A stretch of DNA of 64,000 nt from positions 1,639-65,638 of the forward strand of contig DAOUDZ010000015.1 of the NCBI GenBank assembly GCA_034430575.1, in the 5' to 3' direction. Shown in pieces: positions 5,940 to 39,156 of the stretch. The stretch is from Dehalococcoidales bacterium (GTDB lineage: Bacteria; Chloroflexota; Dehalococcoidia; Dehalococcoidales; RBG-16-60-22). A program made the translations under genes and the position numbers. Below the pieces are notes generated by a model that was not told the DNA's origin, ran no database searches, and worked only from the letters and a program-made list of their open reading frames with translations. The stretch's first letter is position 1; the number at the start of each line of letters is the position of its first letter.

Positions 5940-7931
5940 TTGGCAGACTATTACTGGCTACAATCGATGGGTTACAGATTACCTCCCGGTCGGGAGGTAA
6001 TTCAATTTATGGAGGTAAAAAACAGGCTTTCAAGCAACATGGAAAAAAGAGAGACCATTCCGCAGGTTATTAAGAGCAATCGCGACAGGTGGAGTTCACG
6101 GACAGCCATGTCCATGAAGATGTTCGGCGTCTGGCACAGGTACAGCTGGCAGGACTACTACGAGAACATCAAGCATTTCTCGCTGGGTATGATAAGCCTG
6201 GGGCTGGCACACGGTGACGTGGTCTGCATCATCGGGGACAACGAGCCGCAGTGGTTCTGGGGCGAGTTCGCGGCTCAGGCGGCCGGAGGCATCGCCACGG
6301 GCATCTTCGTCGACTCTATTCCGTCAGAAGTTAAATACGTTGCCGAGCACTCCGACGCCAAATTCGCCATCGTCAACGACCAGGAGCAGACGGACAAGTT
6401 CCTGGAAATCAAGGACGAGCTGCCCCTGCTGAAAAAGGTCATCTACTGGGACCCTAAGGGACTGCGCAACTACGAAGACCCGATACTCATCAGCTTCGAC
6501 GAGGTAATAGGACTGGGCAGGGAATACGAAAAATCGCACCCCGGGCTTTTCGAGCAGAATGTGGACGAAGGTAAAGGCGAGGATATCGCTTTCATCTACT
6601 ACACATCGGGGACTACCGGCCTGCCTAAAGGGGCCACGCTTAACCACCGCGCCCTGATAACCACAGCCCAGGGATTTGTCGACCGTTACCCGCTGGATGA
6701 GAACGACGACCTGATTTCCAATTTCCCGGCGGCCTGGGTCGGCGACAGTTTCTTCGCGACCATCCCGCATTTACTGACGGGGGCCAAGCTCAACTTCCCC
6801 GAGGAGCCGGAAACTATCGCCGAAGACACCCGGGAAATTGGCCCGAACTTCGTTATCTACGGCCCGCGGCAGTGGGAGGGGCTGGTCAGCGAAATCCAGG
6901 TAAAGATGATGGACGCCAATCCCCTGAAGCGTTTCATCTATAACCTCTTCCTGCCGGTAGGGCATAAAATCGCCGATATCAAGTTCGATGGTAAAACACC
7001 GAATTTGTTCTGGCGTATTCTCCACAGTATCGCCTATTTAGCTTTATTCCGGCCGCTAAAAGACCGTCTGGGACTTAGCAAGGTAAGGTTCGCCGTGACG
7101 GGAAGCTCGGTGCTAAGTCTGGATACCTTCCGACTCATCCACGCCATCGGCGTTGAGCTCAGGCAGTGCTACGCCAGCACTGAAGCCGGCTTAATTTCAT
7201 CTCATGGGAAAGGCGAAATAAAGTTCGAGAGCGTCGGCAGGCCGTCACTCGGCACTTCACTTCGGATAACCAGCGAGGGTGAACTCCTGGTTGCCAGCGA
7301 CTGCATGTTCAAGGGTTACCATAAAAACGAGGAGAAAACGGCGGAAACCCTCATAAATGGCTGGTGCCATACCGGGGACGCCGTCAATATCAACGAGCAG
7401 GGGCACCTGATATTCATGGACCGTCTGGAACATATGGGCCAGCTGAAGTCGGGCGCCAAGTACGCTCCCCAGTACATCGAGGGCAGGCTCAGGTTCAGTC
7501 CGTATATCAAGGATGCTATGGTCATAGGAGGCAAGGATAAAGACTATGTCTCGGCCATATTAAATATAGATTTCGCCATGGTGGGGAAATGGGCGGAGCG
7601 CCACCGTATTCCTTATACTACCTTTGTCGACCTTTCCCAGAAGAAAGAGGTGGCCGACCTCGTGCGGCAGGACCTGGAGCGGGTCAACGGTTATCTGCCG
7701 GAGCAATCCCGCGTACAGAAATTCGTCCTGTTGCACAAGGAGTTCGACCCTGATGAGGCAGAGCTCACGCGCACACGGAAGCTGCGAAGAGAGTTCGTGG
7801 AAGAACGTTATAAAGATTTAATTGACGCTTTATACGGCAACAAGGATAAGGTTGACGTACAGGCAGCGGTGACCTATAGAGACGGGCGGAAAGGCCAGGT
7901 AACCACGAGTATTCAGGTAAGGAGTATCTAG
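5940..7931 (+). CDS. AMP-dependent acyl-CoA synthetase (long-chain fatty-acid-CoA ligase-like)
   Basis: Canonical P-loop YTSGTTGLPKGA, YASTEAG, and TGDAV...GHLIFMDR. The track start is a TTG, so the true start may be an internal ATG (MEVKN or MEKRE). Confidence 0.8.
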   Translation: MADYYWLQSMGYRLPPGREVIQFMEVKNRLSSNMEKRETIPQVIKSNRDRWSSRTAMSMKMFGVWHRYSWQDYYENIKHFSLGMISLGLAHGDVVCIIGDNEPQWFWGEFAAQAAGGIATGIFVDSIPSEVKYVAEHSDAKFAIVNDQEQTDKFLEIKDELPLLKKVIYWDPKGLRNYEDPILISFDEVIGLGREYEKSHPGLFEQNVDEGKGEDIAFIYYTSGTTGLPKGATLNHRALITTAQGFVDRYPLDENDDLISNFPAAWVGDSFFATIPHLLTGAKLNFPEEPETIAEDTREIGPNFVIYGPRQWEGLVSEIQVKMMDANPLKRFIYNLFLPVGHKIADIKFDGKTPNLFWRILHSIAYLALFRPLKDRLGLSKVRFAVTGSSVLSLDTFRLIHAIGVELRQCYASTEAGLISSHGKGEIKFESVGRPSLGTSLRITSEGELLVASDCMFKGYHKNEEKTAETLINGWCHTGDAVNINEQGHLIFMDRLEHMGQLKSGAKYAPQYIEGRLRFSPYIKDAMVIGGKDKDYVSAILNIDFAMVGKWAERHRIPYTTFVDLSQKKEVADLVRQDLERVNGYLPEQSRVQKFVLLHKEFDPDEAELTRTRKLRREFVEERYKDLIDALYGNKDKVDVQAAVTYRDGRKGQVTTSIQVRSI

Positions 7932-7950
7932 GAAAGGGGCATACTGGTAA

Positions 7951-8835
7951 ATGGCTGAACTACTCCAGTTTGTTATCACCGGCATATCGGTGGGCATGGT
8001 CTATTCACTCATCGCCCTGGGATTCGTCCTGGTCTGGAAATCGAGCAGCGTGGCCAACCTCGCTCTGGGGCAGATAGTCTTGATTTCTTCATGGTTCACC
8101 TACTCAATGCTGGCACAGGCCGAGTTGCCCGTTTATATTGCGTTTCCGCTGGTGATTCTCTTCGCCCTGTTCTTAGGGTGGGTAATCGAAAGGTTTGCCC
8201 TGCGCCCGCTCATCGCCCAGCCTATTCTATCGCTTATCACCGTCACACTGGGGATAGGCTACTTTATCGAAGGAGTGATAACATTCATCTGGCCGTGGAG
8301 CGTCGACGCTCTGCCCCGCCTCTTCCCCAGGGACGTAATACACATCGGCCCGGCGGTTATCTCACAGGAGTACGTATGGGTAATCGTCATCTGCCTGGTG
8401 GTATTCATTTTACTGACCGCATTCTTCCGCTACCACAGGATGGGTATCGCCATGCGGGCCACCGCCGATGACCAGATGGCAGTGCAGGCCTGCGGTATCC
8501 CCGTGACGAGGGTCTTCTCCACATCGTGGATGTTCGCCTGCTGCGTGGCGGCTATCGGCGGCATCCTGATATCCAGTATCGGCGGCATTACCCACGGGCT
8601 GGTCGAGACCGGGCTGAAAGCCTTTTCCGTGGTGATACTCGGCGGGCTGGACTCCTTCGCCGGAGCTATCATCGCCGGCCCGATTATCGGTCTTTGTGAA
8701 AGCCTCGGCGGCGGCTACCTGACGCCGTATATCTGGGCCGGGGTCAAAGATATTATACCCTTCGTTATCATTATAATCGTCATGGTTATCAAGCCCTACG
8801 GGCTGTTCGGAGAGGAGCGCATAGAGAGGATATAA
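7951..8835 (+). CDS. livH: Branched-chain amino acid-type ABC transporter permease (LivH family)
   Basis: Multi-TM protein of 294 aa, typical LivH length and position. Followed 2 nt later by the LivM-like gene. Confidence 0.8.
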   Translation: MAELLQFVITGISVGMVYSLIALGFVLVWKSSSVANLALGQIVLISSWFTYSMLAQAELPVYIAFPLVILFALFLGWVIERFALRPLIAQPILSLITVTLGIGYFIEGVITFIWPWSVDALPRLFPRDVIHIGPAVISQEYVWVIVICLVVFILLTAFFRYHRMGIAMRATADDQMAVQACGIPVTRVFSTSWMFACCVAAIGGILISSIGGITHGLVETGLKAFSVVILGGLDSFAGAIIAGPIIGLCESLGGGYLTPYIWAGVKDIIPFVIIIIVMVIKPYGLFGEERIERI

Positions 8836-8836
8836 G

Positions 8837-9889
8837 ATGAGCTTACCGTGCGGGACGCGTAACCATAACTACGCTGAAGACATGGCTATAGTGCGCACCA
8901 AGACCCACTGGGTGCTGCTCATCGGCCTTCTCGTTATTATCTTCACGGCGCCGCTGTATTTCAGCAACTACTGGCTGGGAGTCTTCAATCTTATCGGCAT
9001 TACCCTCATCGCCGCTATCGGACTGAACATACTGGTCGGCTACTGCGGTCAATTATCAATCGGACATGCCGGCTTCATCGCCGTGGGAGCTTATACTGCC
9101 GCCATACTGACCAACCGACTGGAAATGCCTTTCCTGGTGGGACTCATCGGCGCCGGCGTTGTCTCCGGGTTAATCGGCATTATCTTCGGTTTACCATCGG
9201 TACGCGTCAAGGGATTTTACCTTGCCATTACTACTATCGCCGCCCAGTTTATCATCATATGGGTCATCAACCACTGGGGTTTTACCGGCGGCTTCCTCGG
9301 TATCAAGGTGCCCTATGCTTCCATAGGGGGGCTGGTCTTCCGCAGCGAATCGAGCCAGTTTTATCTTATTATTATTATTGCCGCTCTGTGTGTTTTCTTT
9401 GCCAAGAACCTGACCAGGACAAAGGTAGGCAGGGCATTCATCGCCATCCGCGATAACGACCTTGCCGCCGAGGTTATGGGCGTGAATCTCCTTTATTACA
9501 AGCTGCTGGCCTTCTTCATCGGCTGCTTCTTCGCTGGTATCGCCGGGGCTCTGCTCGCCCACTGGATAGGATTCCTCAACGCCGAGCAGTTCAGCTTTAC
9601 GGAGTCGATTCTTTACGTCGGCATGATTATCATCGGCGGATTGGGCACTTCCATAGGCCCCATCTTCGGCGTGGTTTTTATCAGAATTCTGCAGCAATTA
9701 CTTACCGTGGAGCTGGTTCCCTTTTTGGAGAGCTCGTTTACCATGTTTCCCTCGGGATTTGCCACCGGCGTTACCCCGATGCTCTTCGGGCTGGTAATAG
9801 TGCTTTTCCTGATACTGGAACCGAGGGGATTGGCCCACCGCTGGGCGTTATTTAAGTCGGCCTATCGCCTGTGGCCGTTTTCATATTAA
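8837..9889 (+). CDS. livM: Branched-chain amino acid-type ABC transporter permease (LivM family)
   Basis: Multi-TM protein of 350 aa. GQLSIGHAGFIAVGAYT motif. Confidence 0.8.
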   Translation: MSLPCGTRNHNYAEDMAIVRTKTHWVLLIGLLVIIFTAPLYFSNYWLGVFNLIGITLIAAIGLNILVGYCGQLSIGHAGFIAVGAYTAAILTNRLEMPFLVGLIGAGVVSGLIGIIFGLPSVRVKGFYLAITTIAAQFIIIWVINHWGFTGGFLGIKVPYASIGGLVFRSESSQFYLIIIIAALCVFFAKNLTRTKVGRAFIAIRDNDLAAEVMGVNLLYYKLLAFFIGCFFAGIAGALLAHWIGFLNAEQFSFTESILYVGMIIIGGLGTSIGPIFGVVFIRILQQLLTVELVPFLESSFTMFPSGFATGVTPMLFGLVIVLFLILEPRGLAHRWALFKSAYRLWPFSY

Positions 9890-9974
9890 ATACAAAGTAT
9901 AAGGGGGTATGGGGTATGTAGTTCACAGATGGCAACCAGAACAACGAACTGATAAATATTAAGAGGAGGGAAAA

Positions 9975-11240
9975 ATGAAAAACAGGACGTTAATTATCAC
10001 CACAATCGTATGCCTCGCGCTAATAATTGCGGTAATGCCCTTGGTCAGCGCCTGTGGTGAACCCAGTACGGAGGGTAAAACACTGAAAGTAGGCATCACC
10101 ACGCCGACGACCGGACCCGCTGCCGAGAAGGGTGCCCCCATGGGGCATGCCAACCTTGACTGTATCAAATACATCAATGAAGAACTCGGTGGTGTGGAAG
10201 GATACCAGATTGAGGTCATCTGGCGAGACAACGGTTACGATGCGGCCAAGATAGTTACCATTGTCAAGAACTTCATGGATGAGGGCTGTCTGATGTATAC
10301 TACATCCTCTTCGGCCATGATGACGGCTTCCATGGAGATTGCCAACCGGGCCGGATTCCCCGGTATGGCCGCCTTCTCCTCGCCGATTATCTACCGGCCT
10401 CCGCAGCATATTTACGGTCAGATGCCCGATTACGGCGATGACTTCCTGGTGTTCGCCAAGTATTACATGGATAACATCTGGAAAGGTGAAGGCAAACCCA
10501 AGATGGCGATGCACCTGCTGAACAACTCCACCGGCTATGGCGCCAAGGACGCCGCCACGGCTTATGCCGCCGACATGGGTATTGAGATTGTGGCTACCGA
10601 AGAACATTCCAAGACCACAACCTCCGAGATGGAATCCCTGACCCGAATCAAGGCGTTAAATCCCGATGTCCTTTACATCTCCAGCACACCGGCACCGACG
10701 GCGATAGTCGTTAAGAACGCCTACGAACTGGACATGTTCCCCGGCATCACTATCGGCTCGGGCCACGCCGGCTACACCAAGGCGCTGATTGATATTGCCG
10801 GAGCTGATGTTACTGAAGGTGTTTATGGCGTGTTCCCCACGGTAAACTGGGGCGATGATGTTCCCGCTATGGCCAAGATGACGGAATACATGGAGAAAAA
10901 CCACCCCAAGGACGCCGGCAACATGGACTACATCACGTGCTGGGCACAGAGCCTTATCATAGCGGAAATTCTCAAAGAAGCCGTCAAGAATGCCGGATAT
11001 GATGTTCTCGCCAAGGGCGACGCCGAATCATGGAAAGCCCTGGAGGAACAGGGCATTCAGAAGCTAAATAACTATGATGTCGATGGACTGCACGGCCCGG
11101 TAAGCTATTCGGAAGATGATAACCGCCTGTCGAAATCGGTACGCGTCTTCCAGGTCCAAAGCGGCAATATCGTACCGCTGACCGACTGGATTGATGCGCC
11201 GGCAGTCAGGTACGAAGACTTCGATTGGTTTGGCAAGTAA
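9975..11240 (+). CDS. ABC transporter substrate-binding lipoprotein (Leu/Ile/Val-binding family)
   Basis: Signal peptide with lipobox LVSAC. LKVGITTPTTGPAAEKG is typical of Peripla_BP_6 proteins. Confidence 0.8.
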   Translation: MKNRTLIITTIVCLALIIAVMPLVSACGEPSTEGKTLKVGITTPTTGPAAEKGAPMGHANLDCIKYINEELGGVEGYQIEVIWRDNGYDAAKIVTIVKNFMDEGCLMYTTSSSAMMTASMEIANRAGFPGMAAFSSPIIYRPPQHIYGQMPDYGDDFLVFAKYYMDNIWKGEGKPKMAMHLLNNSTGYGAKDAATAYAADMGIEIVATEEHSKTTTSEMESLTRIKALNPDVLYISSTPAPTAIVVKNAYELDMFPGITIGSGHAGYTKALIDIAGADVTEGVYGVFPTVNWGDDVPAMAKMTEYMEKNHPKDAGNMDYITCWAQSLIIAEILKEAVKNAGYDVLAKGDAESWKALEEQGIQKLNNYDVDGLHGPVSYSEDDNRLSKSVRVFQVQSGNIVPLTDWIDAPAVRYEDFDWFGK

Positions 11241-27798: not shown

Positions 27799-28434
27799 AT
27801 GACATCTCTCGAACAACAGATACTCGACTTTATAGCGGCCACCTATAACCTGCTCCAATGGCCGGGGGTAGTCATTCTCATGGCTGTCGAAAGCGCCTGT
27901 ATCCCCTTCCCAAGCGAACTTATCATGCCTCTGGCAGGCTGGATGCTCATCAGGGAACAGGGGCTAACCGTTCACCACATTTTTATCGCCGGTGCCTACG
28001 GGGCTCTGGGCAATACTATCGGTTCGGTTATCGCTTATATCGTCGGCATGCGGGCCGGTCGTCCTCTGCTGAATAAATACGGACGTTATATCCTCATATC
28101 GCAGCGTGACCTCGACCTAGCGGATAGGTGGTTTTCAAAAAGCGGTAGCTGGACGGTCTTCATCTCCCGCCTACTGCCGGTAATACGCACGTATATCAGT
28201 CTGCCTGCCGGTATCGCCAGAATGAATATTGTTAAATTCCTGATATATACCTTTACAGGTTCGTTTATATGGAGCGCGGGGCTTGCTTACGGCGGTTACC
28301 GGATGGGAGAACACTGGGAACAACTACGGGACGCCATGCGTCCTTTCGACCCGTTATTTATTGCGATAATAGTGGCTCTTATTGTTTTCTACATTTACAG
28401 GCATGTAAAACACTCGAACAGCAATCAGGCATAA
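27799..28434 (+). CDS. DedA-family membrane protein
   Basis: VESACIPFPSELIMPLAGW and LPVIRTYISLPAG motifs. ATG at 27799; the track start at 27739 is a non-ATG extension. Confidence 0.8.
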   Translation: MTSLEQQILDFIAATYNLLQWPGVVILMAVESACIPFPSELIMPLAGWMLIREQGLTVHHIFIAGAYGALGNTIGSVIAYIVGMRAGRPLLNKYGRYILISQRDLDLADRWFSKSGSWTVFISRLLPVIRTYISLPAGIARMNIVKFLIYTFTGSFIWSAGLAYGGYRMGEHWEQLRDAMRPFDPLFIAIIVALIVFYIYRHVKHSNSNQA

Positions 28435-28501
28435 TGTTCTTGAGAGAACTGTATTGACCTTAGTCTCTATTCGTGTTACATTTTTAATGAAATGCAGTCC
28501 C

Positions 28502-28579
28502 GTCCCTGTAGCTCAGTTAGGATAGAGCAGCTGCCTTCTAAGCAGCGGGTCGTGGGTTCGAATCCCTCCAGGGACGCCA
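28502..28579 (+). tRNA. tRNA-Arg (anticodon TCT), CCA encoded
   Basis: Acceptor stem GTCCCTG/CAGGGAC. Anticodon loop CTTCTAA. T-arm GGTTCGAATCC. Confidence 0.9.
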
Positions 28580-28710
28580 TCTAAGGCTCAAGCTAAGGCT
28601 AAATTAACCCTCCAAAAAGCGGGCAAAATCCTCCGAAAATGCTAAAAAGACCCGCTACTTCGTCAAAAAAGCACGATGAAAAGACCCTTTATCTTTTCAT
28701 CGAAAGAAAG

Positions 28711-28785
28711 ACTATAATGCAACGCGGCCTCCGCCTCCTTGAGTACGGCGATGATTTGTTACTCGGTGTATTTCATGGCTTTCAT
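28711..28785 (-). pseudogene. Relic of an IS3-family transposase OrfA N-terminus
   Basis: The minus strand reads MKAMKYTE*QIIAVLKEAEAA. This matches the characteristic (F/Y)(T/S)EEQIIAxLKEAEAG start of IS3 OrfA, but with TAA in place of a Glu codon. Similarity is lost after about 22 residues. RBS GGAGGA is retained. Confidence 0.5.
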
Positions 28786-28910
28786 GAGTCCTCCTGGTGT
28801 CTTCATTATATTGGAAAGACTTCAAGTCATGATGTAGCGGTTCCGGGGGGCAGAATTTGTAATATGTTGCCGTTTATATTACGCTATTTAACAATACAAA
28901 GGAGGAAATA

Positions 28911-29885
28911 ATGAAAGATTTTGCTGGTAAAATTCTATTTATAACCGGAGGCGCTTCCGGTGCCGGATTCGGTCAGGCAAAGGTGTTTTCAGAAGCAGGC
29001 TGTAAGATTGTGATTGCAGACATTCGTCAGGATCATTTGGACGAGGCAATGGAGTATTTCCGGGATAAGAAGGTCGAAGCTCACGCCATACAACTGGACA
29101 TTACGGACCGCAAGGCATATGCGGCGGCGGCAGACGAGGTAGAAAAGGTATTCGGCGGTCCCCCCCAGCTTCTCTTCAATACCGCGGGGGTGAATACTTT
29201 CGGTCCGGCTGAAGCCTCGACATTTGAAGATTATGATTGGGTTATAGGTGTCTGTCTCGGCGGAGTCATCAACGGTTTGGTGACATTCGTGCCGCGCATG
29301 ATAAAAGCCGGTAAGGGCGGTCATATCGCCACGACTTCCTCAATGGGAGGTTTTATGGCAGCATCCGGGTGTACTCCATACTCGGTTGCCAAGGCCGGAG
29401 TCAACAGTCTCATGGAGTGTTATTACCAGGCGCTTAAGCCTTATAATATAGGCGTATCTGTCCTGTGCCCGGGTAATATCAAATCAAATATAGCTGAAGC
29501 AACTTTTACACGACCAGAGCATTTACAAAATACCGGATATAATGTAAATGAAAAGACAATCGATTTTCTGCGTTCTATTCATGCACAAGGAATCGAACCT
29601 GTGGAGCTGGCACACTTGCTCAAGAGGGGCATTGAGAACGAGCAGCTCTTTATTATCCCGGCCCCGGACCCGGAGAAGATGTTGAGGGATAATTTTGAGC
29701 GGCTCATCAATTATGCCACTCCTGAAGGCATGAAGAGACAGGAAGAGCTGATGAAGAAGCGCATGGAAGAAATGAGGAAACACATGGGCGACAATAATCC
29801 CTTCGGGGGTGCAGCCGAAGCCGGATGGGGGAAAGCCAGGCAGGATATAACATGGGTCAAAGATTCTTTTGGGCCTCCTCAATAG
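28911..29885 (+). CDS. Short-chain dehydrogenase/reductase (SDR) family oxidoreductase
   Basis: ITGGASGAGFG cofactor motif, NTAGV, catalytic Y-x3-K (YSVAKAG). RBS AGGAGG. Confidence 0.85.
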   Translation: MKDFAGKILFITGGASGAGFGQAKVFSEAGCKIVIADIRQDHLDEAMEYFRDKKVEAHAIQLDITDRKAYAAAADEVEKVFGGPPQLLFNTAGVNTFGPAEASTFEDYDWVIGVCLGGVINGLVTFVPRMIKAGKGGHIATTSSMGGFMAASGCTPYSVAKAGVNSLMECYYQALKPYNIGVSVLCPGNIKSNIAEATFTRPEHLQNTGYNVNEKTIDFLRSIHAQGIEPVELAHLLKRGIENEQLFIIPAPDPEKMLRDNFERLINYATPEGMKRQEELMKKRMEEMRKHMGDNNPFGGAAEAGWGKARQDITWVKDSFGPPQ

Positions 29886-29967
29886 AAATGAGGAAATAAT
29901 AGCCACCGATAAAAAACAGACTCGGAATCCTGTCAACCGGGTCCCGCAGGTCGAATGGAGGAATATA

Positions 29968-31689
29968 ATGACAATTGAAGTACGATATTCAGTAATGAGT
30001 CCTGAAGCTGGAGTCCAGAAGAGTACGGGTGGACCGCCGCCGGGTATGGGTGGGCCTCCACCGGGTATGGGTGGACCTGCGCCATCTTCACCTTCTTTTG
30101 CCAAGCGGTTGGATACATTGGAAAACAAAACTGTGTATCTGGTGGATATCGGTTTCGGCGGCGGCTATGAATTCATGCTGCAACTGCAGAAATGGTTTGC
30201 CGAACACATGCCGTCCGTCACCACGATACCAAAACGGAAACCGGGGCATGTGTTCATGGACGATGACAATGACCTCTGGGAGGAAATCAAGGAAAAGGGC
30301 CATGCCGTTGTCCTTGGCGTAGCCGGCTGACCGGGCTGTATTGCAGCGGTCGCTGCAGGTAGTACGAATCTTGAACAGTCCTACGGTATCCCGGTTGCTC
30401 CCGTCTCAGCATACACGATGGAAAGCGTTGCAAAGAGTAACCCGAGAGCCGCTTCTTTAAGTTTCATATATACGCCGTATCCGGTGATAGGTCTGTCTCC
30501 TGAAGTCCTCGATAGATATATCGTAGGCAATGACCCCGATACCGGTAAACCTGTCATCAATGAAATACTTGATGTATTGACCAAACCGATAAGCGAAACA
30601 AAGTTAGAGCCCGAGTCTCCTGTAACTGTAAAAGCCAGCCCTCCCCAGGTACTCCTGGAACCGGATACCGAAGATAATTTACAGCGTCTATTTTATGAAA
30701 AAGGCTGGACAGACGGGTTACCCATCATTCTTCCTACCGAGGAGCGCGTGAAGAAAATGCTTGCGGGCACCAGCGCTGCTCCGGACGAGGTGGTGAGCGA
30801 ATCATTCCGGTTCGATACCGGAGAACTCGTTAAGTACACGGTTTCCAATATCGCGGCCATTGCGGTCATGGCCGGCGCCAGGCCGGAATATTTCCCCGTG
30901 ATACTGGCTATCGCGTCCACCAAACAACCATCACTGATGCCCTCGACAACAGCCTTTGAAGCGATGCTTTTGGTGAACGGACCGATTCGCAACGAGATCG
31001 GTATGAACTCCGGTATTGGCGCGTACAGTGCGGTAAACATGGCAAATTCGGTAATCGGAAGAGCCTGGACATTGATGAGCATTTGCCAGGGATTTGCCAA
31101 GCCTAAAAATACCCTGTGGAGTTCCCAGGGAAATAATCACACTTACAATAACATGTGCGCTGCCGAGAATGAGGAGAGGAGCGTTTGGACGCCTTTCCAT
31201 GTCGGGAAAGGTTTCAAGGCCGAAGAGAGCGTTGTCAGTATCTTCAGGGGATGGTCTTTTCTGAACAGCACCGGCGCAGCTTCCCATCGGTCAGTGGGAG
31301 AGGAATTGAATATCCAGTTAGCGGTGATGCCCCCGCTTAATTCCGCGGCTACCTTAATCATGGATCCGCTGGTGGCCAGAAATTTAAAGGAGAACGAGGG
31401 CTTTACCACCAAGCAGGATTTCTGTCGCTGGATGTCGCAGAACATAAAGATGCCTGCGGGGCAGTACTGGAAAACCGATTATATAGACATGCTGGTGGCA
31501 TCCCAGGCATACAAGGGTGTCGAGCCTTATGCTTCATGGAAAAAGCTCCCGGATAACGAGCTGATAGCTCCCTATCATAATCCGGACAATATCAACATCA
31601 TCGTCGTGGGCGGAGAGGCAAGCCCCTTGTGGAAAGCTGCGGATTACGGCTACGCGGCCAGCGCGTCTATCGACCGGTGGCGCGAATAA
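29968..31689 (+). CDS. Selenocysteine-containing protein (Sec at codon 121, TGA 30328-30330): U-x-x-C redox-type N-terminal module fused to an uncharacterised C-terminal domain of about 430 aa
   Basis: Track ORFs 29869..30330 and 30418..31689 share one frame and are separated only by this TGA. A SECIS-like hairpin lies 11 nt downstream. Read-through gives AVVLGVAG-U-PGC-IAAVAAGS. ATG at 29968 is 6 nt after GGAGGA. Confidence 0.75.
30028..30090 (+). repeat. Three 21-nt in-frame tandem units encoding GGPPPGM-GGPPPGM-GGPAPSS
   Basis: GGTGGACCGCCGCCGGGTATG / GGTGGGCCTCCACCGGGTATG / GGTGGACCTGCGCCATCTTCA. Units 1 and 2 differ only at synonymous positions. Confidence 0.85.
30342..30357 (+). promoter_or_regulatory. 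Bacterial SECIS-like hairpin TGCAGC-GGTC-GCTGCA
   Basis: Perfect 6-bp stem with apical loop GGUC. It begins 11 nt after the UGA, the same geometry as the minimal E. coli fdhF SECIS. Confidence 0.7.
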
Positions 31690-31944
31690 ATCCGATAATG
31701 AATACAGTGACGGATCGTGCGGGCTTCCGGATGAAGTGGCTGATGCTGATTATGATTAGCTTTTTCACGACCTGATTATCGTGCTTTTACTAATCAAAAT
31801 CAGGTACACTACAGGATATTATAGCATATATGCTTATATTATATTTAAGTTAACGAGCTATTATGAGACTGATTACTTATTGAGCTGATACTTAGAGTCC
31901 AGCAACGAGGCTTATACTGGTCCTCGGCAAGCCGTGGTATTCCC

Positions 31945-33405
31945 CTATCTGCTGATAATAACCATGAAAATAAGACCCTGATTGGTCCCGGCATGATGTG
32001 GTCTGTCTATACTGATTATATTCGCTTCGGAAAATCCGCCTGATGTTTCAAGATTGTTTACGAACTGTACAACAAGGGAAGGCTCATTTATGTTCCCCAG
32101 CACAATAATCTGATTGGTACCAATTTCTATTGATTCGAAAGTTAGACCAGCGGGCATAGCCTCTATAATTGAAGAAATATCGCTTACATAATCATTTGAG
32201 CTTAGTATATTCTGATTCTCGTATTTAATTTCCTTAATGTTCGTTTCTATTACCCTGATATCATCCTCGAGTTGATCGGCATTCTCAACCGATTCAAGTA
32301 GTTGATTGAGTTCCAGGTTCGCCTGTGTCATATCCGTTTGCAGTTCCGTAAGACTTGCCTGTACATTGTTCTGTAACTGATAACCGGTTATCAATACACC
32401 TATACCCACGACCAATGTTAATGGCAATAACATTTTTTTAACTGATAGTCTGTTCTTTCTGCTGTTACGTCGCTCTTCAAGGATTTCACCCAGATTGATA
32501 TTGCGATATGGAGCCGCATTTCTATCCATGTCCTTGTTTGGAGTGACGTTCATCAGCACAGAGCCTGTATTAACGGCATACTCATCTAAAGGCAGGGCAG
32601 TTGGAACATTATTTGCCGGAGCTAGTACCTCCACCGGGTGCGTAATTTCCTCCCGTATGATTTCAACCGCCCTTGCATCATTTATTAACTCACCGGTCAG
32701 GAGCACTTTGGTCGTTTCTTGTATCGGATTCTTCGGATTGTTGCTATTATAGAAATCAACCATCTTGGTGAGTTTATCGGTAATTTGCCCGATTTCATCT
32801 TGTAGGTTTGCTTCGGGACCCGGTGAGGGTACGATATGCATCCCCAGAGGCACGCCTTCGACAAGCATTACTATATTAGAATGGCCTGGCTCACAATCTA
32901 CGATGATTGTGTCCTTTTGTTTGGTCAGTCTTGCCAGTGAAAGATGCGGCAGGTCCAGCAAATAGGGTTTAATGCCAGCTTCCGCTAGCGTGCTAATAAG
33001 GGCGTCAATAGGTTGACGTGATACTCCTATAACCAGAATTTGCCATTCGCCTTTCTCTGCCGGGTATGCCTGCCAGGATAGATACATATCTTCAAGAGAA
33101 ATTGGCATTTCCCTTCTGGCTAATCTAAGCGTGGCTTCATTGAGGTCCGAAGGCTTCATTTGGGGTAACGTAAATAATCTGTAGGAAAACGGCAGGCCAT
33201 TGATGCTGCATATCACTTTATCCCTGGGTAGCCGGAGTATTCTAAATACGGATTTTAACTGGTTTGCGATGGCTTCCGGGTCTAAAATATGGCCATTCCT
33301 GATAGAAGCGGCTGGCTGTATATTTTCGCGTTTAAGTACCTTGTTGCCCTTGATTGCAAGGCATTTAATAGCATCCGAGCTAATGTTTAACGTGGTAATT
33401 GTCAT
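31945..33405 (-). CDS. pilM: Type IV pilus assembly protein, PilM (actin-like ATPase fold) fused to a PilN-like TM/coiled-coil part
   Basis: About 300 aa of cytoplasmic PilM-like domain, then TM helix LLPLTLVVGIGVLITGY and a periplasmic-type domain. Position in the cluster also fits. Confidence 0.65.
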   Translation of the reverse strand: MTITTLNISSDAIKCLAIKGNKVLKRENIQPAASIRNGHILDPEAIANQLKSVFRILRLPRDKVICSINGLPFSYRLFTLPQMKPSDLNEATLRLARREMPISLEDMYLSWQAYPAEKGEWQILVIGVSRQPIDALISTLAEAGIKPYLLDLPHLSLARLTKQKDTIIVDCEPGHSNIVMLVEGVPLGMHIVPSPGPEANLQDEIGQITDKLTKMVDFYNSNNPKNPIQETTKVLLTGELINDARAVEIIREEITHPVEVLAPANNVPTALPLDEYAVNTGSVLMNVTPNKDMDRNAAPYRNINLGEILEERRNSRKNRLSVKKMLLPLTLVVGIGVLITGYQLQNNVQASLTELQTDMTQANLELNQLLESVENADQLEDDIRVIETNIKEIKYENQNILSSNDYVSDISSIIEAMPAGLTFESIEIGTNQIIVLGNINEPSLVVQFVNNLETSGGFSEANIISIDRPHHAGTNQGLIFMVIISR

Positions 33406-34049
33406 TATACAGTGTCCTCATTCGCCACCGGAGAGTAGGCGTAAAGAGCAATATTCATGTTGACCGCCACCTGTATATTGTCCTCAAGATTAGAGATATC
33501 AAGTCCGTCCAGTCTCTGAACAGTAAGCTCTGTAATAGTCATTGTTGGGTATTTACTACCCTGCAACTTAGATATAAAATTGGTTGCCTGCTCAAGGCTG
33601 CCTGTGACGGTGCCACTTAATTTCAAGACACGGTAAGATTGGCCGGCATTTTCTGTTACCCACCCTTGTGATATCAGTGGGACAACCTGTACCTGGCACT
33701 CTTCGGCCACATCAATAATATAATCAATCACATCATTTCTGTTTACGGTACCCGGAAAGACATTTTGTACCGCGGCTAATTCAGCCTTAACTGTCTCCAG
33801 TTTTACCTCAAGATTCTGCGGAGGTTGGGGTGTTTCCCCGATTCTCTGGTGGACATGGCTTATTTCATTATTGAGGACATCGATTTGCGCCCGCTCGCCC
33901 AGATGGTCTTTCCATACAACAATATTAGCCACCACGATGATGACAAGCACAATTAATCCAATTGAGGTTATGGAAAACAACTTCTTTTTATTACGATTGG
34001 TTTCCCCTGCCATTATTTTTTCACCATCCGCTTCGTTTAATAATCTCAA
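33405..34049 (-). CDS. PilO-like pilus assembly membrane protein
   Basis: N-terminal TM helix, coiled coil, then a small alpha/beta domain. Overlaps the pilM start by 1 nt. Confidence 0.55.
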   Translation of the reverse strand: MRLLNEADGEKIMAGETNRNKKKLFSITSIGLIVLVIIVVANIVVWKDHLGERAQIDVLNNEISHVHQRIGETPQPPQNLEVKLETVKAELAAVQNVFPGTVNRNDVIDYIIDVAEECQVQVVPLISQGWVTENAGQSYRVLKLSGTVTGSLEQATNFISKLQGSKYPTMTITELTVQRLDGLDISNLEDNIQVAVNMNIALYAYSPVANEDTV

Positions 34050-34057
34050 TCTTATAG

Positions 34058-35362
34058 CTAGATGATATACCAGGAAAAAACGGTAACAATGCCGTCATCG
34101 GTATTTACCGCAGCTTTTATCACGCGGTCACCAGCAGTTACCGTAATGGCGTAGCCGTGCAGACTTTCAATATTAATATTGTCAACATAAAAATAATCAC
34201 CCGCCTGCTCCATATTAGATACAAAACTAATCCAGAAATTATCGGTTAAAGTGTAAGAAGATAAATCTATATCGAAGAAATGGTACTGGCTATCATCACC
34301 GTTAACCCATATATAAACCGTCGTCCAGTTAGTACCGTCGCTGCTTATCCGAGCGCGCGCGTTTCCACTCCCCTCGAACGAGTCAGCCTTAGCCCAGAAC
34401 TTAAGATGGACGACACCTTGCTCCGAGAGGTCGAGCGGCCTTCTGACATCGCCGTTGCTGTCTTGCAGCATCAGGTGATAAGTGCCTTGATAGGGAGCGC
34501 CGGTGTCAGTGATGCTGGAGTTCCCGGTATGGGTCCAGTCACCCAGCCAGCCACTGCCGCCTGTCCATCCCCCGCTCTCAAAATCTTCGGAAGCGATATT
34601 TTTATAGGAACCTACCACCCAGGCAATATCCAGGTCATCGACATAAAAGTAATCGCTGGTATCGCTCATATGGGCGTTAAAAGCTATCCAGAACTGGCTG
34701 GTGAAACTGTAGGAAGTTAAGTCGATATCATAGTAATGGTAGGTATTATCGCTTTCGACGGTGGTCCAGGTGTAGGCTGTCGTCCAGTCGACACCGTTAC
34801 TGCTGACGTCGCAGGTCGCCGTCTCGCCGGTTTCGAAAGAGCGGGCCCTGGCCCGGATGCGGAGTCGAGCGCTGACCTCTTTAGAGAGGTCGACAGACCG
34901 GCTAACGGCAGCGGTGTCAGTTCTTAGCATCATGTGATAAGTTCCTTCATAGGGAGTGCCGGCGTCAGTGATGCTGGAGTTCCCGGTATGGGTCCAGTCA
35001 CCCAGCCAGCCTTCGCCGCCCGTCCAGCCCCCGCTCTCAAAGTCGTCCCAGGCGATGGTTTCCCAGCAATTGCTGACAGTGACATTCGCTCCCAGACCAT
35101 TAATTGATTCATCCAGCGAATAACTCACCATATCACCGGCCGCGGGTATACTGGCGGTGAGTCCCCCGTCAGTCAGATTCCAGATGGCATGTTCGGCACC
35201 GGCGTCACAGGCGTACTGGGAGTGTATCGCCTGCGTGTAGATCCTTGAGCCGATAAGGCTGGTGCCAGTGTGACCCAGGAAAGGCGGTATTATCAGAGCG
35301 CCAGCGAGTATGGCTATCATAACCATGGGCAATGCCTGGCCCTTTTCACTTTTTATCTTCAT
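34058..35362 (-). CDS. PilX-like large minor pilin / tip protein with two tandem beta-sandwich-like repeats of about 153 aa
   Basis: N-terminus KGQALPMVMIAILAGALIIPPFL. Duplicated block DFESGGWTGG(E/S)GWLGDWTHTGNSSITD.G.PY.GTYH.ML. Confidence 0.6.
   Translation of the reverse strand: MKIKSEKGQALPMVMIAILAGALIIPPFLGHTGTSLIGSRIYTQAIHSQYACDAGAEHAIWNLTDGGLTASIPAAGDMVSYSLDESINGLGANVTVSNCWETIAWDDFESGGWTGGEGWLGDWTHTGNSSITDAGTPYEGTYHMMLRTDTAAVSRSVDLSKEVSARLRIRARARSFETGETATCDVSSNGVDWTTAYTWTTVESDNTYHYYDIDLTSYSFTSQFWIAFNAHMSDTSDYFYVDDLDIAWVVGSYKNIASEDFESGGWTGGSGWLGDWTHTGNSSITDTGAPYQGTYHLMLQDSNGDVRRPLDLSEQGVVHLKFWAKADSFEGSGNARARISSDGTNWTTVYIWVNGDDSQYHFFDIDLSSYTLTDNFWISFVSNMEQAGDYFYVDNINIESLHGYAITVTAGDRVIKAAVNTDDGIVTVFSWYII
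34505..34552. repeat. 48-nt exact internal repeat (copy A) inside the PilX-like gene
   Basis: Identical to 34964-35011. The offset is 459 nt, which is 153 codons. Confidence 0.9.
34964..35011. repeat. 48-nt exact internal repeat (copy B) inside the PilX-like gene
   Basis: GTCAGTGATGCTGGAGTTCCCGGTATGGGTCCAGTCACCCAGCCAGCC occurs in both copies. Confidence 0.9.
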
Positions 35363-35368
35363 TTGTTA

Positions 35369-35812
35369 TTATCCTGTGGGTCGCATATATATCTGGTATG
35401 TTTGATTCTCGCTTATGTCCCAGCGGCTATCCGGCGCTGCAGTAATATCCATGGTAATAACACGGCCCAGAACCGAGAAGTTGGCGCTGGTGATTTCTCT
35501 GGCTATCAACCGGTTTGAGCCACCGTAGACGCGATATAACTCATCGCCAGTCAAGGTGTAGCTTATCACCGAATCATCGGGAAGAGTCAATGACAGACTG
35601 CTGCCGCCGGCGGCTGACTTAGCCGTCTGCCCGTCAACGCTGACCCAGTGAGCTGCGTTCTGGACGGAGTGCAGTGCCGTCACCTGGTCATTACCTCGTT
35701 CGGGTACGGTTAAAATTTGCTGTACTACCAGAGCCAGGACCGCAGCGATACAGCCGGTGATAGCGATAGCTACCATCAGTTCCACCAGGGTATAACCCCT
35801 CTCTCTTTTCAT
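35369..35812 (-). CDS. Prepilin-type N-terminal cleavage/methylation domain protein (minor pilin)
   Basis: MKRERG|YTLVELMVAIAITG. Confidence 0.8.
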   Translation of the reverse strand: MKRERGYTLVELMVAIAITGCIAAVLALVVQQILTVPERGNDQVTALHSVQNAAHWVSVDGQTAKSAAGGSSLSLTLPDDSVISYTLTGDELYRVYGGSNRLIAREITSANFSVLGRVITMDITAAPDSRWDISENQTYQIYMRPTG

Positions 35813-36207
35813 CGGTCCACCTTGTAATCCTCGACAGTCATGATAACGGCACCGTCTCTGGAAATATTAGCTGTAACCTTCTGAATATTAGTATTTGTAC
35901 TCGGAACGGAGGTAACTCCAACCGATATACTGTATCCATTAGGCACGCTTACTGTCGGGTAGGTTGTAGCGTCAGGGTCATAAGTATAATTTTTAATATA
36001 TTCCATCTGTGTCCGTGCCAGACTTTGAGCGCTAACCTCCTGGTCATTCTCTCTTATCGCAAGTGCCCCACCGGACATGGATAAAACCATGGTAAGTACA
36101 CCGCCACCAAGTATAGCAATGGCTACCACAGACTCTACGAGGGTGATGCCCCTTTCGTCCCAGTCCCACAACATCCTGTTCAGCCACCGGTAAAACCTTT
36201 TTTTCAT
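35809..36207 (-). CDS. Prepilin-type N-terminal cleavage/methylation domain protein (minor pilin)
   Basis: A leader of about 20 aa ending ERG|ITLVESVVAIAILGGG. Confidence 0.75.
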   Translation of the reverse strand: MKKRFYRWLNRMLWDWDERGITLVESVVAIAILGGGVLTMVLSMSGGALAIRENDQEVSAQSLARTQMEYIKNYTYDPDATTYPTVSVPNGYSISVGVTSVPSTNTNIQKVTANISRDGAVIMTVEDYKVDR

Positions 36208-36229
36208 ATCAACACTGACCTGTGAATAG

Positions 36230-37438
36230 TTAGTATGCGGTTTGATATATTGAATATAGCGGCGTAATGATAGCTATACCAATAAGACTGATAATTAACC
36301 CGACAACGATAATAGAGGCAGGTTCAATCATTGATAGGAGCCTCTGGACCCTCTGGTCAAATTTCTTCTCATAAAAGTCCGCCATAGTGGCAAATGATGA
36401 TTGCAGGGTACCTGTTTTTTCGCCAATATAAATCATATCTACCAGCAGTCTGGGAAACATGGCAATTTTCGCCATTGGCTGCGAAAGACCTTTACCCTTA
36501 ATTAAATCCTGCCGGATATCAGCAAGAGCTTGCCTAATAATGCTGCTATCGATAACCCCGATTATAGTATTTATGGTCTGGGGAAGCGTGAGCCCGGCTT
36601 CAAGCAGCATGGCGCTGCTGCGGCAAAAACGGCAAATATTGCGCATAATAACGATGTTTCTAACTACCGGCAGTTTCAGCGCTAATGAGTCCAGGAACTT
36701 TCTAACGGTCGAAGATTTTAAGCAAAACATAATAATAACAACCAGGCCTATTAGACCCGCCGCAAGGTAGAATTTATAGTCTGAAATAAAACTGCTCAAT
36801 GCAATTAATATCCTGGTCGGCAGTGGCAGGCTAGCACCGAGTGAGTTGAAGAGCGTTACCAGCGAGGGCAGGGCTACAGTGGCAAGGATGGAAATGACTA
36901 TGACGGCCATAATGGCCAAAAAGGCAGGATACGATAACATGTGTTTGATATTATGTGACATGCTCGTTTCCTTTTCTATATAGCCGGCTACCAGCCTCAG
37001 ACCCCGCGTTAAATCTCCTGATTTTTCACTTACTCTAATTACCTCGCAGTAGTGAGCCGACACAATACGCGAATACCGCGAAAGTGCTTGTGAGAGAGCA
37101 ATGCCGCCAGAGAGTTCTTGACCCAATTTGTAAATAACATTTCTTAAAGCGGCTTTGGGAGCTTGTTCTGCAAGAAGCCACAGAGCTTGAACAATGGGCA
37201 TGCCGGAATCCATCAATGCGGCCAATTGATTGAATAAATCAACAATGTCTTCCTTTTTAGTGCTATGGAACCGAAGAAATAATAGTTCGAGTGATAATGG
37301 TGAACTTGTTTTTTTTAATGTCAGGACATGGGTGTATCCGGCTTCTAGTAAATATTCTTCAGCCATTTGCTCGCTCGGAACATCAATGGTGCCTTCGACA
37401 ACCTTTTTATCGAAAGTATAGGCTCTATATTGATACAT
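36230..37438 (-). CDS. pilC: Type IV pilus platform protein (GspF/PilC family)
   Basis: 402 aa. Duplicated T2SSF-type architecture with three TM segments. Confidence 0.85.
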   Translation of the reverse strand: MYQYRAYTFDKKVVEGTIDVPSEQMAEEYLLEAGYTHVLTLKKTSSPLSLELLFLRFHSTKKEDIVDLFNQLAALMDSGMPIVQALWLLAEQAPKAALRNVIYKLGQELSGGIALSQALSRYSRIVSAHYCEVIRVSEKSGDLTRGLRLVAGYIEKETSMSHNIKHMLSYPAFLAIMAVIVISILATVALPSLVTLFNSLGASLPLPTRILIALSSFISDYKFYLAAGLIGLVVIIMFCLKSSTVRKFLDSLALKLPVVRNIVIMRNICRFCRSSAMLLEAGLTLPQTINTIIGVIDSSIIRQALADIRQDLIKGKGLSQPMAKIAMFPRLLVDMIYIGEKTGTLQSSFATMADFYEKKFDQRVQRLLSMIEPASIIVVGLIISLIGIAIITPLYSIYQTAY

Positions 37439-37467
37439 TGTAGTTACCTAAAAATCAAAATCTAACA

Positions 37468-39156
37468 CTAACCGAGTGTAAATATACCATTAATCACTTC
37501 ATTGAAAGTCGTGATTCCCTCCGCCGCCTTAATCATACCGTCACGCTTCATTGTAAACATCCCTTCGCGAAGGGCCTCCTCTCTAAGTTCACCAATGCTG
37601 GCATTACTAATAATAAGTTTCTGTATTTCCTCGCTGATAACAAGCAATTCAAAGATACCTGTTCTACCCTGGTAACCGGTATTGGCACAGAGATGACAGC
37701 CGGTGCCTGTATAAACGGCGGGTAACTCCTGCAGCATTTCTCTGGCGTAGATTTCTTGCTCAAGTTTCGAGGGTGCTGAAACGGTGCGACAATTGGTACA
37801 GATGCGCCGAACCATGCGCTGGGCTACCAGAGCGATGAGTGTTGACGAGACCAGGGCAGGTTCGACGCCAAGGTCTGTCAGACGCGATAACATACTCACG
37901 GCATCATTGGCATGAATGGAAGAGAAAACCAGATGTCCCGTCAGGGCTGCCTGCACTGCCGTTACGGCTGTTTCTTTATCCCGTATTTCTCCTACGAGAA
38001 CAACATCAGGGTCCTGCCGCAGCATTGCCCGTAATCCGCCGGCGAAGGTCACCCCGGCCTTGGGGTCTACCTGGCTCTGACTGATATCCTCAAACTGGTA
38101 CTCAACAGGGTCCTCAATCGTCATAATGTTATATTTACTACGGTCTATTTCATTGATGGACGTATAGAGGGTAGTTGTCTTTCCAGAGCCGGTGGGGCCA
38201 CCTACCAGAACCATGCCGAAGGGGTAATGCAGGAGCGCTTTATATCTCTTAAGGGTCTCCGGTAAAAAACCCAGTTCTGGTAAAGTGAAAAGGGATAATG
38301 ACTTATCTAGAAGGCGCAGGGTTATCCGCTCACCATAGACTGTATTCGTTGTAGCTACACGAATATCGATATTGTGGTCACCGACGTTTACGGAAAATTG
38401 GCTATCTTGAGGCTGTTTAGAACGGGTAACATCCATTTCAGCAAGTATCTTAATTCTGGACGCCAGTTCGGCGTGGACGCTGATGGGCAGCGAATTCATG
38501 TCATGTAATATCCCATCAATACGATAACGTATACGCAGCCTGTTTTCCTGCGGCTCCAGGTGAATGTCCGAAGCCCGGTCTCTCACAGCTTGTTCAATGA
38601 TAAGGTCCAGGCTTTCCGTGATGGGAGTCTCAACAATAAAACCAGAACGGGCCTTCTGGTCTCCGAATGCCGTGAGTTCAAATTCACTTGCCTTTTCCTG
38701 GATTTCTTCATTAGCCCGATAATAAATATCTATGGCGCGCCTGATATCAGAGGCATTTGCATACACCACTTCGATTTTCATATTGGTTTTAGTAAAAATA
38801 TCGCTTATAGCAATGTAATCATCAGGGTCAGCCATTACCACCACAAGCGATTCTCCCATGATATTCAGGGGAATGAGAGTATTCTTCCTCGCCAGTTCCT
38901 CCGGTATTAGTTTCAATGCCTCCGGCTGTACAATATGAGTTTTCAGGTCGATAAGTGGTACATTTAATATGATGCTAAGGAAGGAAGCCAGTTCCTCCGC
39001 ATTAATAACTCCCTGACTTACCAGAATCTCGCTAAGTTTGCCCCCTCTTTCACGCTGCAATTCCAGGGCGTGATGCAATTGCTCAGCCGTGATGATTTGC
39101 GCTTGAACCAGTGATTCGCCGAGCTTGGCTCTTTTTCGGCTATTAGCAACAATCAT
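37468..39156 (-). CDS. pilB: Type IV pilus assembly ATPase (GspE/PilB family)
   Basis: T2SSE_N domain at the N-terminus, Walker A GPTGSGKTTT, Asp and His boxes, and the tetra-Cys motif (C..C...C..C). Confidence 0.9.
   Translation of the reverse strand: MIVANSRKRAKLGESLVQAQIITAEQLHHALELQRERGGKLSEILVSQGVINAEELASFLSIILNVPLIDLKTHIVQPEALKLIPEELARKNTLIPLNIMGESLVVVMADPDDYIAISDIFTKTNMKIEVVYANASDIRRAIDIYYRANEEIQEKASEFELTAFGDQKARSGFIVETPITESLDLIIEQAVRDRASDIHLEPQENRLRIRYRIDGILHDMNSLPISVHAELASRIKILAEMDVTRSKQPQDSQFSVNVGDHNIDIRVATTNTVYGERITLRLLDKSLSLFTLPELGFLPETLKRYKALLHYPFGMVLVGGPTGSGKTTTLYTSINEIDRSKYNIMTIEDPVEYQFEDISQSQVDPKAGVTFAGGLRAMLRQDPDVVLVGEIRDKETAVTAVQAALTGHLVFSSIHANDAVSMLSRLTDLGVEPALVSSTLIALVAQRMVRRICTNCRTVSAPSKLEQEIYAREMLQELPAVYTGTGCHLCANTGYQGRTGIFELLVISEEIQKLIISNASIGELREEALREGMFTMKRDGMIKAAEGITTFNEVINGIFTLG

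Follow-up and report, generated by a model that had tools for sequence, protein, structure and literature searches.

A predicted selenoprotein gene in a Dehalococcoidales contig that joins a UGSC domain to a large C-terminal domain of no assigned family

The locus and its reading frame

The 64-kb stretch of DNA analysed here (the window) comes from a Dehalococcoidales bacterium (contig DAOUDZ010000015.1 of assembly GCA_034430575.1), and it contains two program-listed open reading frames (ORFs), 29869..30330 and 30418..31689, which together form a candidate selenoprotein gene. The two ORFs share one frame on the plus strand, and direct reading together with translation of 29968-31689 confirmed that the sole internal stop is the TGA at 30328-30330, as the original prediction, made from the sequence alone, had stated. 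When this codon is read as selenocysteine (Sec, U), the product is 573 aa long, with U as residue 121: ...KGHAVVLGVAG-U-PGC-IAAVAAGSTNLEQSYGIPVAPV..., the junction peptide being GHAVVLGVAG-U-PGCIAAVAAGSTNLEQSYGIPVAPVSAYTMESVAK and the U being followed by PGC and then by IAAVAAG. In our estimate, the probability that the locus encodes one Sec-containing protein, made by recoding under the direction of a selenocysteine insertion sequence (SECIS), is about 0.9; the features concerned are collected in Table 1.

The proposed start of the coding sequence (CDS) at 29968 is supported by the orthologues, which begin with the shared peptide M-[ST]-I-E-V-R-[FY]-S-V-M-S-P-E. The N-terminal part spans about 103-143 aa across complete orthologues, and this length variation appears to be partly due to the Pro/Gly-rich region, a tandem repeat with two copies of GGPPPGM, which may be a flexible linker behind the conserved first strand (IEVRYSVMSPE).

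Sixteen same-frame ORF pairs split by a TGA were found in the window, and a conserved protein-like junction was seen in this pair only; there was no plausible candidate for a second selenoprotein gene among these pairs. The DXS and DctM genes of the same window end at TGA as an ordinary stop, and thus the genetic code is standard here.

Table 1. Coordinates of the features at the predicted selenoprotein locus (positions in the window)
Feature	Position	Strand	Description and basis
Complete selenoprotein CDS (predicted)	29968..31689	+	573 aa, U121, TAA stop 31687-31689; translation
Shine-Dalgarno-like GGAGG	29957..29961	+	6 nt upstream of ATG 29968; direct reading
Predicted UGA selenocysteine codon (U121)	30328..30330	+	TGA in 80/80 loci; Cys at this column in uninterrupted homologues
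TGT = Cys124, probable resolving Cys of U-x-x-C	30337..30339	+	G-U-[PI]-G-C in 80/80 loci; Cys invariant in alignment A2
Predicted SECIS upper stem-loop UGCAGC-GGUC-GCUGCA	30342..30357	+	11 nt after UGA; conserved and covarying
Pro/Gly-rich repeat (GGPPPGMGGPPPGMGGP) near N-terminus	30028..30078	+	Translation, orthologue comparison
UGSC domain (residues 43-181), flavodoxin-like alpha/beta module, TGA inside	30094..30510	+	Pfam PF24696, 36.6 bits
C-terminal domain (residues 183-573), no assigned family	30514..31686	+	About 390 aa; AlphaFold2 pLDDT 92.6, pTM 0.90
SDR gene, conserved upstream partner, probably same operon	28911..29885	+	Pfam adh_short, 131.8 bits

Conservation of the TGA and of the hairpin that follows it

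Orthologous loci were collected by tblastn in one genome per species. The 80 loci returned have matches across both halves of the protein and come from records labelled Dehalococcoidales or other Chloroflexi, Acidobacteriota/Terriglobia, Bacillota, Actinomycetota/Gaiellales, Desulfobacteraceae and Baltobacteraceae; most matches are collinear over residues 1-572, and identity ranges from 54 to 95%. Without exception, the U column is occupied by TGA within the motif G-U-[PI]-G-C, and the peptide is conserved on both sides of it. The loci also share an architecture of approximately 105-140 aa, U and approximately 452-480 aa, giving a total of 560-600 aa. Over the 45 nt after the TGA, the entropy at codon positions 1, 2 and 3 is 0.53, 0.54 and 1.33 bits, respectively (76 distinct orthologous sequences), and this excess of variation at third positions indicates that the region evolves as coding sequence. 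Peptide conservation in all 80 loci extends over the 29 codons that lie between the TGA and ATG 30418, and both halves of the protein are under strong purifying selection.

A wider family was gathered by an exhaustive search (E<=1e-3) of representatives clustered at 50% identity, with the downstream ORF (P0001, 423 aa) as the query; at this threshold, the C-terminal domain family comprises 3,646 representative clusters. Among its members are uninterrupted homologues of 535-569 aa; those with Cys at the U column, in the forms CPGC, CSTC, CSSC and CGSC, measure 544-569 aa, and the distant homologue P0169 reads C-G-S-C at the motif. The CSSC forms came from a second search, seeded with P0137, which has the CPGC motif; it also listed full-length Cys proteins alongside forms of about 444 aa that cover 80% of the query, the latter being the Sec forms cut at the TGA. 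Cys stands at the U column in 14 of the 23 full-length forms inspected.

Public gene calls present the locus as two genes: P0001 is annotated as a 423-aa protein, and one orthologous locus (L081) carries separate genes of 111 and 423 aa. The locus could accordingly be read as a pair of real genes, one for a UGSC-like fragment of 120 aa that ends at a genuine TGA and one for an independent 423-aa protein starting at ATG 30418, the more so as standalone C-terminal domain proteins of about 370 aa exist (P0159, P0226) and TGA serves this organism as a normal stop. However, the codons that such an arrangement would leave untranslated are conserved as protein with a coding substitution pattern, and the Pfam domain UGSC (PF24696), which scores above its gathering score of 25 and is also matched in 46 of 70 family members, crosses the stop. 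In addition, the called downstream starts vary among orthologues (407-476 aa), as arbitrary internal starts would, the Cys homologues are single chains, and a conserved, covarying hairpin follows the TGA in the TGA forms alone. We therefore regard two separate genes as most improbable.

A premature stop created by pseudogenization or by an assembly or sequencing error is a further alternative, and a lone window by itself cannot exclude an error. The chance of this is nevertheless vanishingly small, as the identical TGA recurs in 80 independent assemblies from several phyla, and Sec paralogues elsewhere with U-D-G-C, U-H-G-C and U-I-G-C motifs also keep it, with both halves of the protein under selection. 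Thus, both the two-gene and the pseudogene readings were rejected because of the invariant TGA, the coding pattern, the UGSC domain that runs across the stop and the uninterrupted Cys homologues; the same evidence bears out the proposal that the two called ORFs are one selenoprotein gene.

The predicted SECIS hairpin begins exactly 11 nt after the TGA (spacer CCGGGCTGTAT, 30331-30341) and consists of a perfect 6-bp stem with a GGUC apical loop, 16 nt in all and without a bulge; direct reading agreed on this with what had been reported at 30342-30357. Its conservation was assessed in a gap-free alignment (A1) of 76 distinct sequences, with the stem tested against 500 column shuffles and with positions counted from the start of the UGA. 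In the stem, 87.7% of cells at the six pairs are paired, compared with 72.4 ± 1.2% in the shuffles (0 of 500 reach the observed value), and the covariation score is 0.366 compared with 0.132, every slid register being far lower. The informative pairs are the two that join wobble positions: pair 18-27 is AU in 44 sequences and GC in 24, and pair 15-30 is UA in 25, GC in 14, AU in 5 and CG in 5. Compensatory changes also take the form of amino-acid swaps, from Ala..Ala (GC/GC) to Ser..Gly (UC/GG) or Val..Thr (GU/AC), in which the pairing is kept. Loop positions 21 and 24 covary as well (GC in 59, AU in 12), and G22-U23 between them, at 30349-30350 in the window, is invariant, an arrangement that fits a closed loop extruding GpU, which we take to be the form seen in SelB-SECIS structures. 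The RNAalifold consensus retains the upper helix only, the lower stem not being conserved.

The strongest test of the SECIS is provided by sequences in which hairpin and peptide part company. In the Gaiellaceae Sec clade, U-PGC-APEVSGH replaces the IAAVAA peptide, yet GCCGGA-GGUC-UCCGGC is found in the same register, and no such hairpin is present in the Cys forms (CPGC, CSTC). The comparison proposed with the original prediction, of whether Cys or TGA occupies the column and whether the hairpin covaries, has therefore returned TGA in all 80 loci, Cys in the uninterrupted forms and a covarying stem; the hairpin, far from being peculiar to the window, recurs in the TGA-containing orthologues.

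The published rules for the Escherichia coli fdhF SECIS place the upper stem-loop 11 nt from the UGA and make G23 and U24 essential (PMC8659212). As in fdhF, the hairpin of the window starts 11 nt past the UGA, inside the coding sequence, and its GGUC apical loop carries an invariant G-U, numbered 22/23 in the present alignment and 23/24 in fdhF. Unlike fdhF, it measures 16 nt rather than 17 nt and lacks the bulged U17 in the 5' arm. The fdhF geometry that had been claimed thus holds for the spacing, the loop, the invariant G22/U23 and the covarying stem, and fails for the bulge. On these comparative grounds, the hairpin is classed as a fdhF-like SECIS, for which SelB binding is predicted.

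Besides the missing bulge, several observations weigh against SECIS-directed Sec insertion. The single-sequence fold energy of 30320-30385 is unremarkable (z = -0.49), and the evidence for the hairpin is therefore comparative, not thermodynamic. In the window's copy, Ala codons (GCN) dictate four of the six stem pairs, so that the pairing is partly a by-product of the peptide. No Rfam SECIS match was obtained at the gathering threshold, nor at E<=10 over 30280-30440, a null result that is uninformative because no suitable bacterial model responded. Finally, selA, selB and selD were not found among the 17 Pfam-scanned ORFs of the window, and ARAGORN found no tRNA-Sec in the window, which has three ordinary tRNAs, or in any fetched locus.

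Two of these points, the want of Sec machinery in the window and of the bulged U, would also suit a UGA that is read through without selenocysteine, by near-cognate insertion of Trp or Cys or by local reassignment of the code, with the hairpin as a mere stimulator of pausing or read-through. However, the residue that homologues carry at this column is Cys, the usual counterpart of Sec, and not Trp or Gly; the loop, which lies at a fixed distance from the UGA and is closed by a covarying pair, holds an invariant GpU, the signature of SelB recognition; and TGA ends other genes of the window. Moreover, UGSC is an established Sec/Cys family (PMC2398784; NF041046), and the class Dehalococcoidia has selenoprotein-rich genomes, metagenome-assembled genomes with 46-49 selenoproteins being on record (PMC13326102). 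Read-through of this kind is thus highly unlikely, and Sec insertion at U121 is retained as the best explanation.

Domains, paralogues and neighbouring genes

The original prediction had likened the N-terminal module to the 'UGSC family (seleno)protein'. This was upheld at the level of the Pfam domain, to which the module is homologous, with U-x-x-C kept and Sec and Cys exchanged among relatives; it was not upheld at the level of the NCBIfam equivalog NF041046, for which the window protein scores 30.7 bits, under the curated cut-off of 125 (tested relatives, 17-86 bits). The literal U-G-S-C motif is also not present, being U-P-G-C here and U-I-G-C in some orthologues. A further difference is one of extent: the NF041046 profile has 147 positions, approximately the UGSC module alone, whereas the window protein, at 573 aa, adds a C-terminal domain of about 390 aa.

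UGSC was first described as a 'UGSC-containing protein' in marine metagenomes, with a suggested thioredoxin-like fold (Zhang & Gladyshev 2008, PMC2398784), and is among the most abundant selenoprotein families of ocean metagenomes. An AlphaFold2 model, for which the input was an alignment of 70 sequences with the full-length CPGC homologue P0137 at its head, reached a predicted local distance difference test score (pLDDT) of 91.9 and a predicted template modelling score (pTM) of 0.92. Its N-terminal part consists of alternating beta and alpha elements, and the Cys ends strand 94-100, just before helix 105-118, in agreement with the earlier placing of the U-x-x-C motif at the end of a beta-strand. 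The thioredoxin-like fold is not fitted by this flavodoxin-like beta-alpha-beta layout; a Foldseek comparison of the full-length model with the PDB gave weak flavodoxin- or Rossmann-like similarities, none of them significant. A 'UGSC/Unknown_1 fusion' is noted in the Global Ocean Sampling selenoproteome (PMC2398784, Figure S1A), and, whether or not its Unknown_1 is the present C-terminal domain, it resembles the protein of the window in joining a UGSC domain to a conserved uncharacterised domain.

The C-terminal domain carries the invariant or near-invariant motifs GWTDGLPIxLPTxxRV, VMAGAxPE, NGPIR, ANxxGRAW, ENEE and VVGG and a terminal W-R. That the remainder of the protein, of roughly 430 aa, could be placed in no family was borne out: neither the window protein nor 70 relatives gave a Pfam or NCBIfam family for this domain, the PDB gave no sequence match at E<=10 with a single sequence or a profile, and the AlphaFold2 model, itself confident (Table 1), matched nothing in the PDB at E<=1e-3 in Foldseek. 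The best Foldseek match, a class I fumarate hydratase, was non-significant (E 8e-3, probability 0.2, TM score 0.17-0.19) and was set aside. Without UGSC, the domain occurs not only alone, as in the standalone proteins mentioned above, but also as a tandem duplication (717-741 aa), and it is therefore an autonomous unit.

The C-terminal end differs among orthologues. Most of them carry a tail, ...W-R-A-x(4-6)-E-C-x-D-G-x-C-G-L-P-D..., with a conserved C-x4-C pair (alignment A2, columns ~455-490; for example L015, L030, L042, L050, L056, L058, L061, L066, L071 and L076), which could be a mobile redox arm. The window copy and its closest relatives stop directly after D-R-W-R-E, without this tail, and the tail is thus not essential.

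Many loci contain two to four paralogues, some of which are likewise Sec forms. In Acidobacteriota (L061:4711-6495; also L058, L065, L057 and L059), a tandem second paralogue is split by TGA at GVAG-U-HGC, and counting from the UGA's first base again puts G and U at 22-23 nt; its N-terminus has a twin-arginine-like signal (MDRRKMLALLGVSPALVAG...), which suggests that this U-H-G-C paralogue is an exported form. A divergently oriented paralogue, L002:189-1900 on the minus strand (similar copies in L001, L003 and L006), is found some 2 kb upstream of the orthologue and is a Sec form, GVGG-U-DGC, that ends in the C-x-D-G-x-C-G tail. At the corresponding position the window has DXS and a VTT-domain gene, and no second copy of the C-terminal domain was found in it.

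Directly upstream of the selenoprotein CDS, at a distance of 82 nt, ends a gene for a classical short-chain dehydrogenase/reductase (SDR), which has only generic SDR matches in NCBIfam, below their cut-offs. The original prediction had put this gap at 83 nt and suggested a redox operon; the distance was off by one, and the pairing itself is conserved, an SDR homologue standing directly upstream in 50 of the 80 loci, mostly labelled Dehalococcoidales/Dehalococcoidia or Chloroflexi, as well as upstream of distant forms, namely the Gaiellaceae Sec forms and the CPGC Cys form. Two SDRs occur at the locus of a 1.56-Mb Chloroflexi contig and directly upstream of the Sec forms in the Gaiellaceae loci L089 and L090, and in L086-L088, also from Gaiellaceae, two SDRs head a cluster with a branched-chain amino acid (LIV)-type ATP-binding cassette (ABC) transporter as well as a tandem pair of Sec paralogues. 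A gene for a thioredoxin reductase (TrxR)-like flavoprotein (Pyr_redox_2) adjoins in L086, L090, L091 and L092. The CPGC Cys form stands at the end of a cluster in the order flavin mononucleotide (FMN) reductase, acyl-CoA-dehydrogenase-like, flavin reductase, SDR, TrxR-like, SDR and fusion, and another Cys form follows genes for a polyketide synthase, a 3beta-hydroxysteroid dehydrogenase/epimerase and a cupin. An in-frame SDR-UGSC fusion in L068:1247-2288 proved to be an artefact, in which a masked run of N bridges two genes.

Close to the orthologue on its downstream side in the 1.56-Mb Chloroflexi contig, a flavodoxin-like/FMN-reductase gene (L082:11605-12212) is called as two short pieces of 108 and 60 aa; a frameshift or a further TGA-split selenoprotein could account for this. 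Within the window, a tRNA-Arg(TCT) at 28502-28579 (+) lies between the VTT-domain gene and the unit of ORF90, SDR and selenoprotein, and is the upstream limit of the putative operon; a promoter and terminator scan of 28400-32000 gave counts no higher than in shuffled sequence. An AMP-binding enzyme gene and a LIV-type ABC transporter (BPD_transp_2, Peripla_BP_6) are encoded at 5940-11240 (+), about 20 kb upstream. The same kind of transporter adjoins the Gaiellaceae Sec fusions, but given this distance a link of the window's transporter to the selenoprotein is doubtful. Directly downstream, at 31945-39156 (-), lies an unrelated type IV pilus/type II secretion-like cluster (PilM/PilN-like, GspM-like, T2SSE ATPase).

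A possible mechanism and comparison with known reductases

In the favoured reading, the UGA at 30328-30330 is recoded as selenocysteine by a SelB-type mechanism, steered by the hairpin at 30342-30357, which starts 11 nt downstream of the UGA and presents the invariant GpU within its GGUC loop. In the resulting protein, U121-P-G-C124 lies where a strand ends and a helix begins, and might cycle between the selenol/thiol and selenenylsulfide states. The C-terminal domain would act as a substrate-binding or catalytic module, to which the Sec/Cys module would give, or from which it would take, reducing equivalents exchanged with a thioredoxin-type system or, in some clades, with the TrxR-like flavoprotein encoded nearby. 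The enzyme might share one pathway with the SDR encoded upstream and act on a small organic substrate.

This redox relay, from thioredoxin-type donor through the Sec/Cys module to chemistry in the C-terminal domain and a common pathway with the SDR, is put forward tentatively, because of the SDR synteny, the TrxR-like neighbours in some clades and the autonomy of the C-terminal domain. Three observations speak against it: no TrxR-like gene was found within the window, the C-terminal domain family as a whole conserves no Cys or His, and at the U column nine of the 23 full-length homologues have T, M, G, S or A in place of Cys or Sec. The last of these means that the C-terminal domain does not universally need a redox motif; the motif, present in 80 of 80 loci, is apparently essential in this orthogroup, not for the domain in general.

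The selenoprotein assignment is not new in kind, since NCBI already uses the name 'UGSC family (seleno)protein' for truncated downstream ORFs of this orthogroup (HSW57649.1 and HEY7692435.1). The best 120 matches to the window's protein cover 68-78% of its length, and all the public gene calls seen for TGA-containing members, with hundreds of relatives listed, are split at the TGA. The full-length gene model is under-described, as is the large family of C-terminal domains, which has no assigned family or solved-structure match. The correct gene model would mend many database records. In addition, the fusion gives UGSC a physical link to a large domain of high conservation, while synteny links it to SDR oxidoreductases, and this combination of fusion and synteny offers a concrete handle for finding the substrate. 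The C-terminal domain family, which numbers over 3,600 clusters at 50% identity and has a confident model but no solved match, is likewise a good target for structural and functional work.

It is conceivable, if rather less than probable, that the domain of about 390 aa is a new enzyme fold and that it belongs to a reductase system, very widespread but so far overlooked, whose other parts are the flavodoxin-like Sec/Cys module, an SDR or two and, in certain clades, the TrxR-like flavoprotein and the LIV-type ABC importer. The substrate of this system in Chloroflexi, Acidobacteriota, Actinomycetota and Bacillota would be a small organic compound taken up from outside. Such a system would be comparable to the glycine and proline reductases. 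GrdB and PrdB, of the glycine/sarcosine/betaine and D-proline reductases, respectively, are Sec-dependent reductases of small organic substrates that are encoded with thioredoxin-system genes. By analogy, the present protein shares with them a U-x-x-C motif, which is the form listed for PrdB (PMC2398784 Table 2), and in some clades an adjacent TrxR-like gene. Unlike GrdB and PrdB, to which no sequence relationship was detected (no match to Pfam GRDB or Gly_reductase), the predicted selenoprotein described here has an SDR as its conserved partner.

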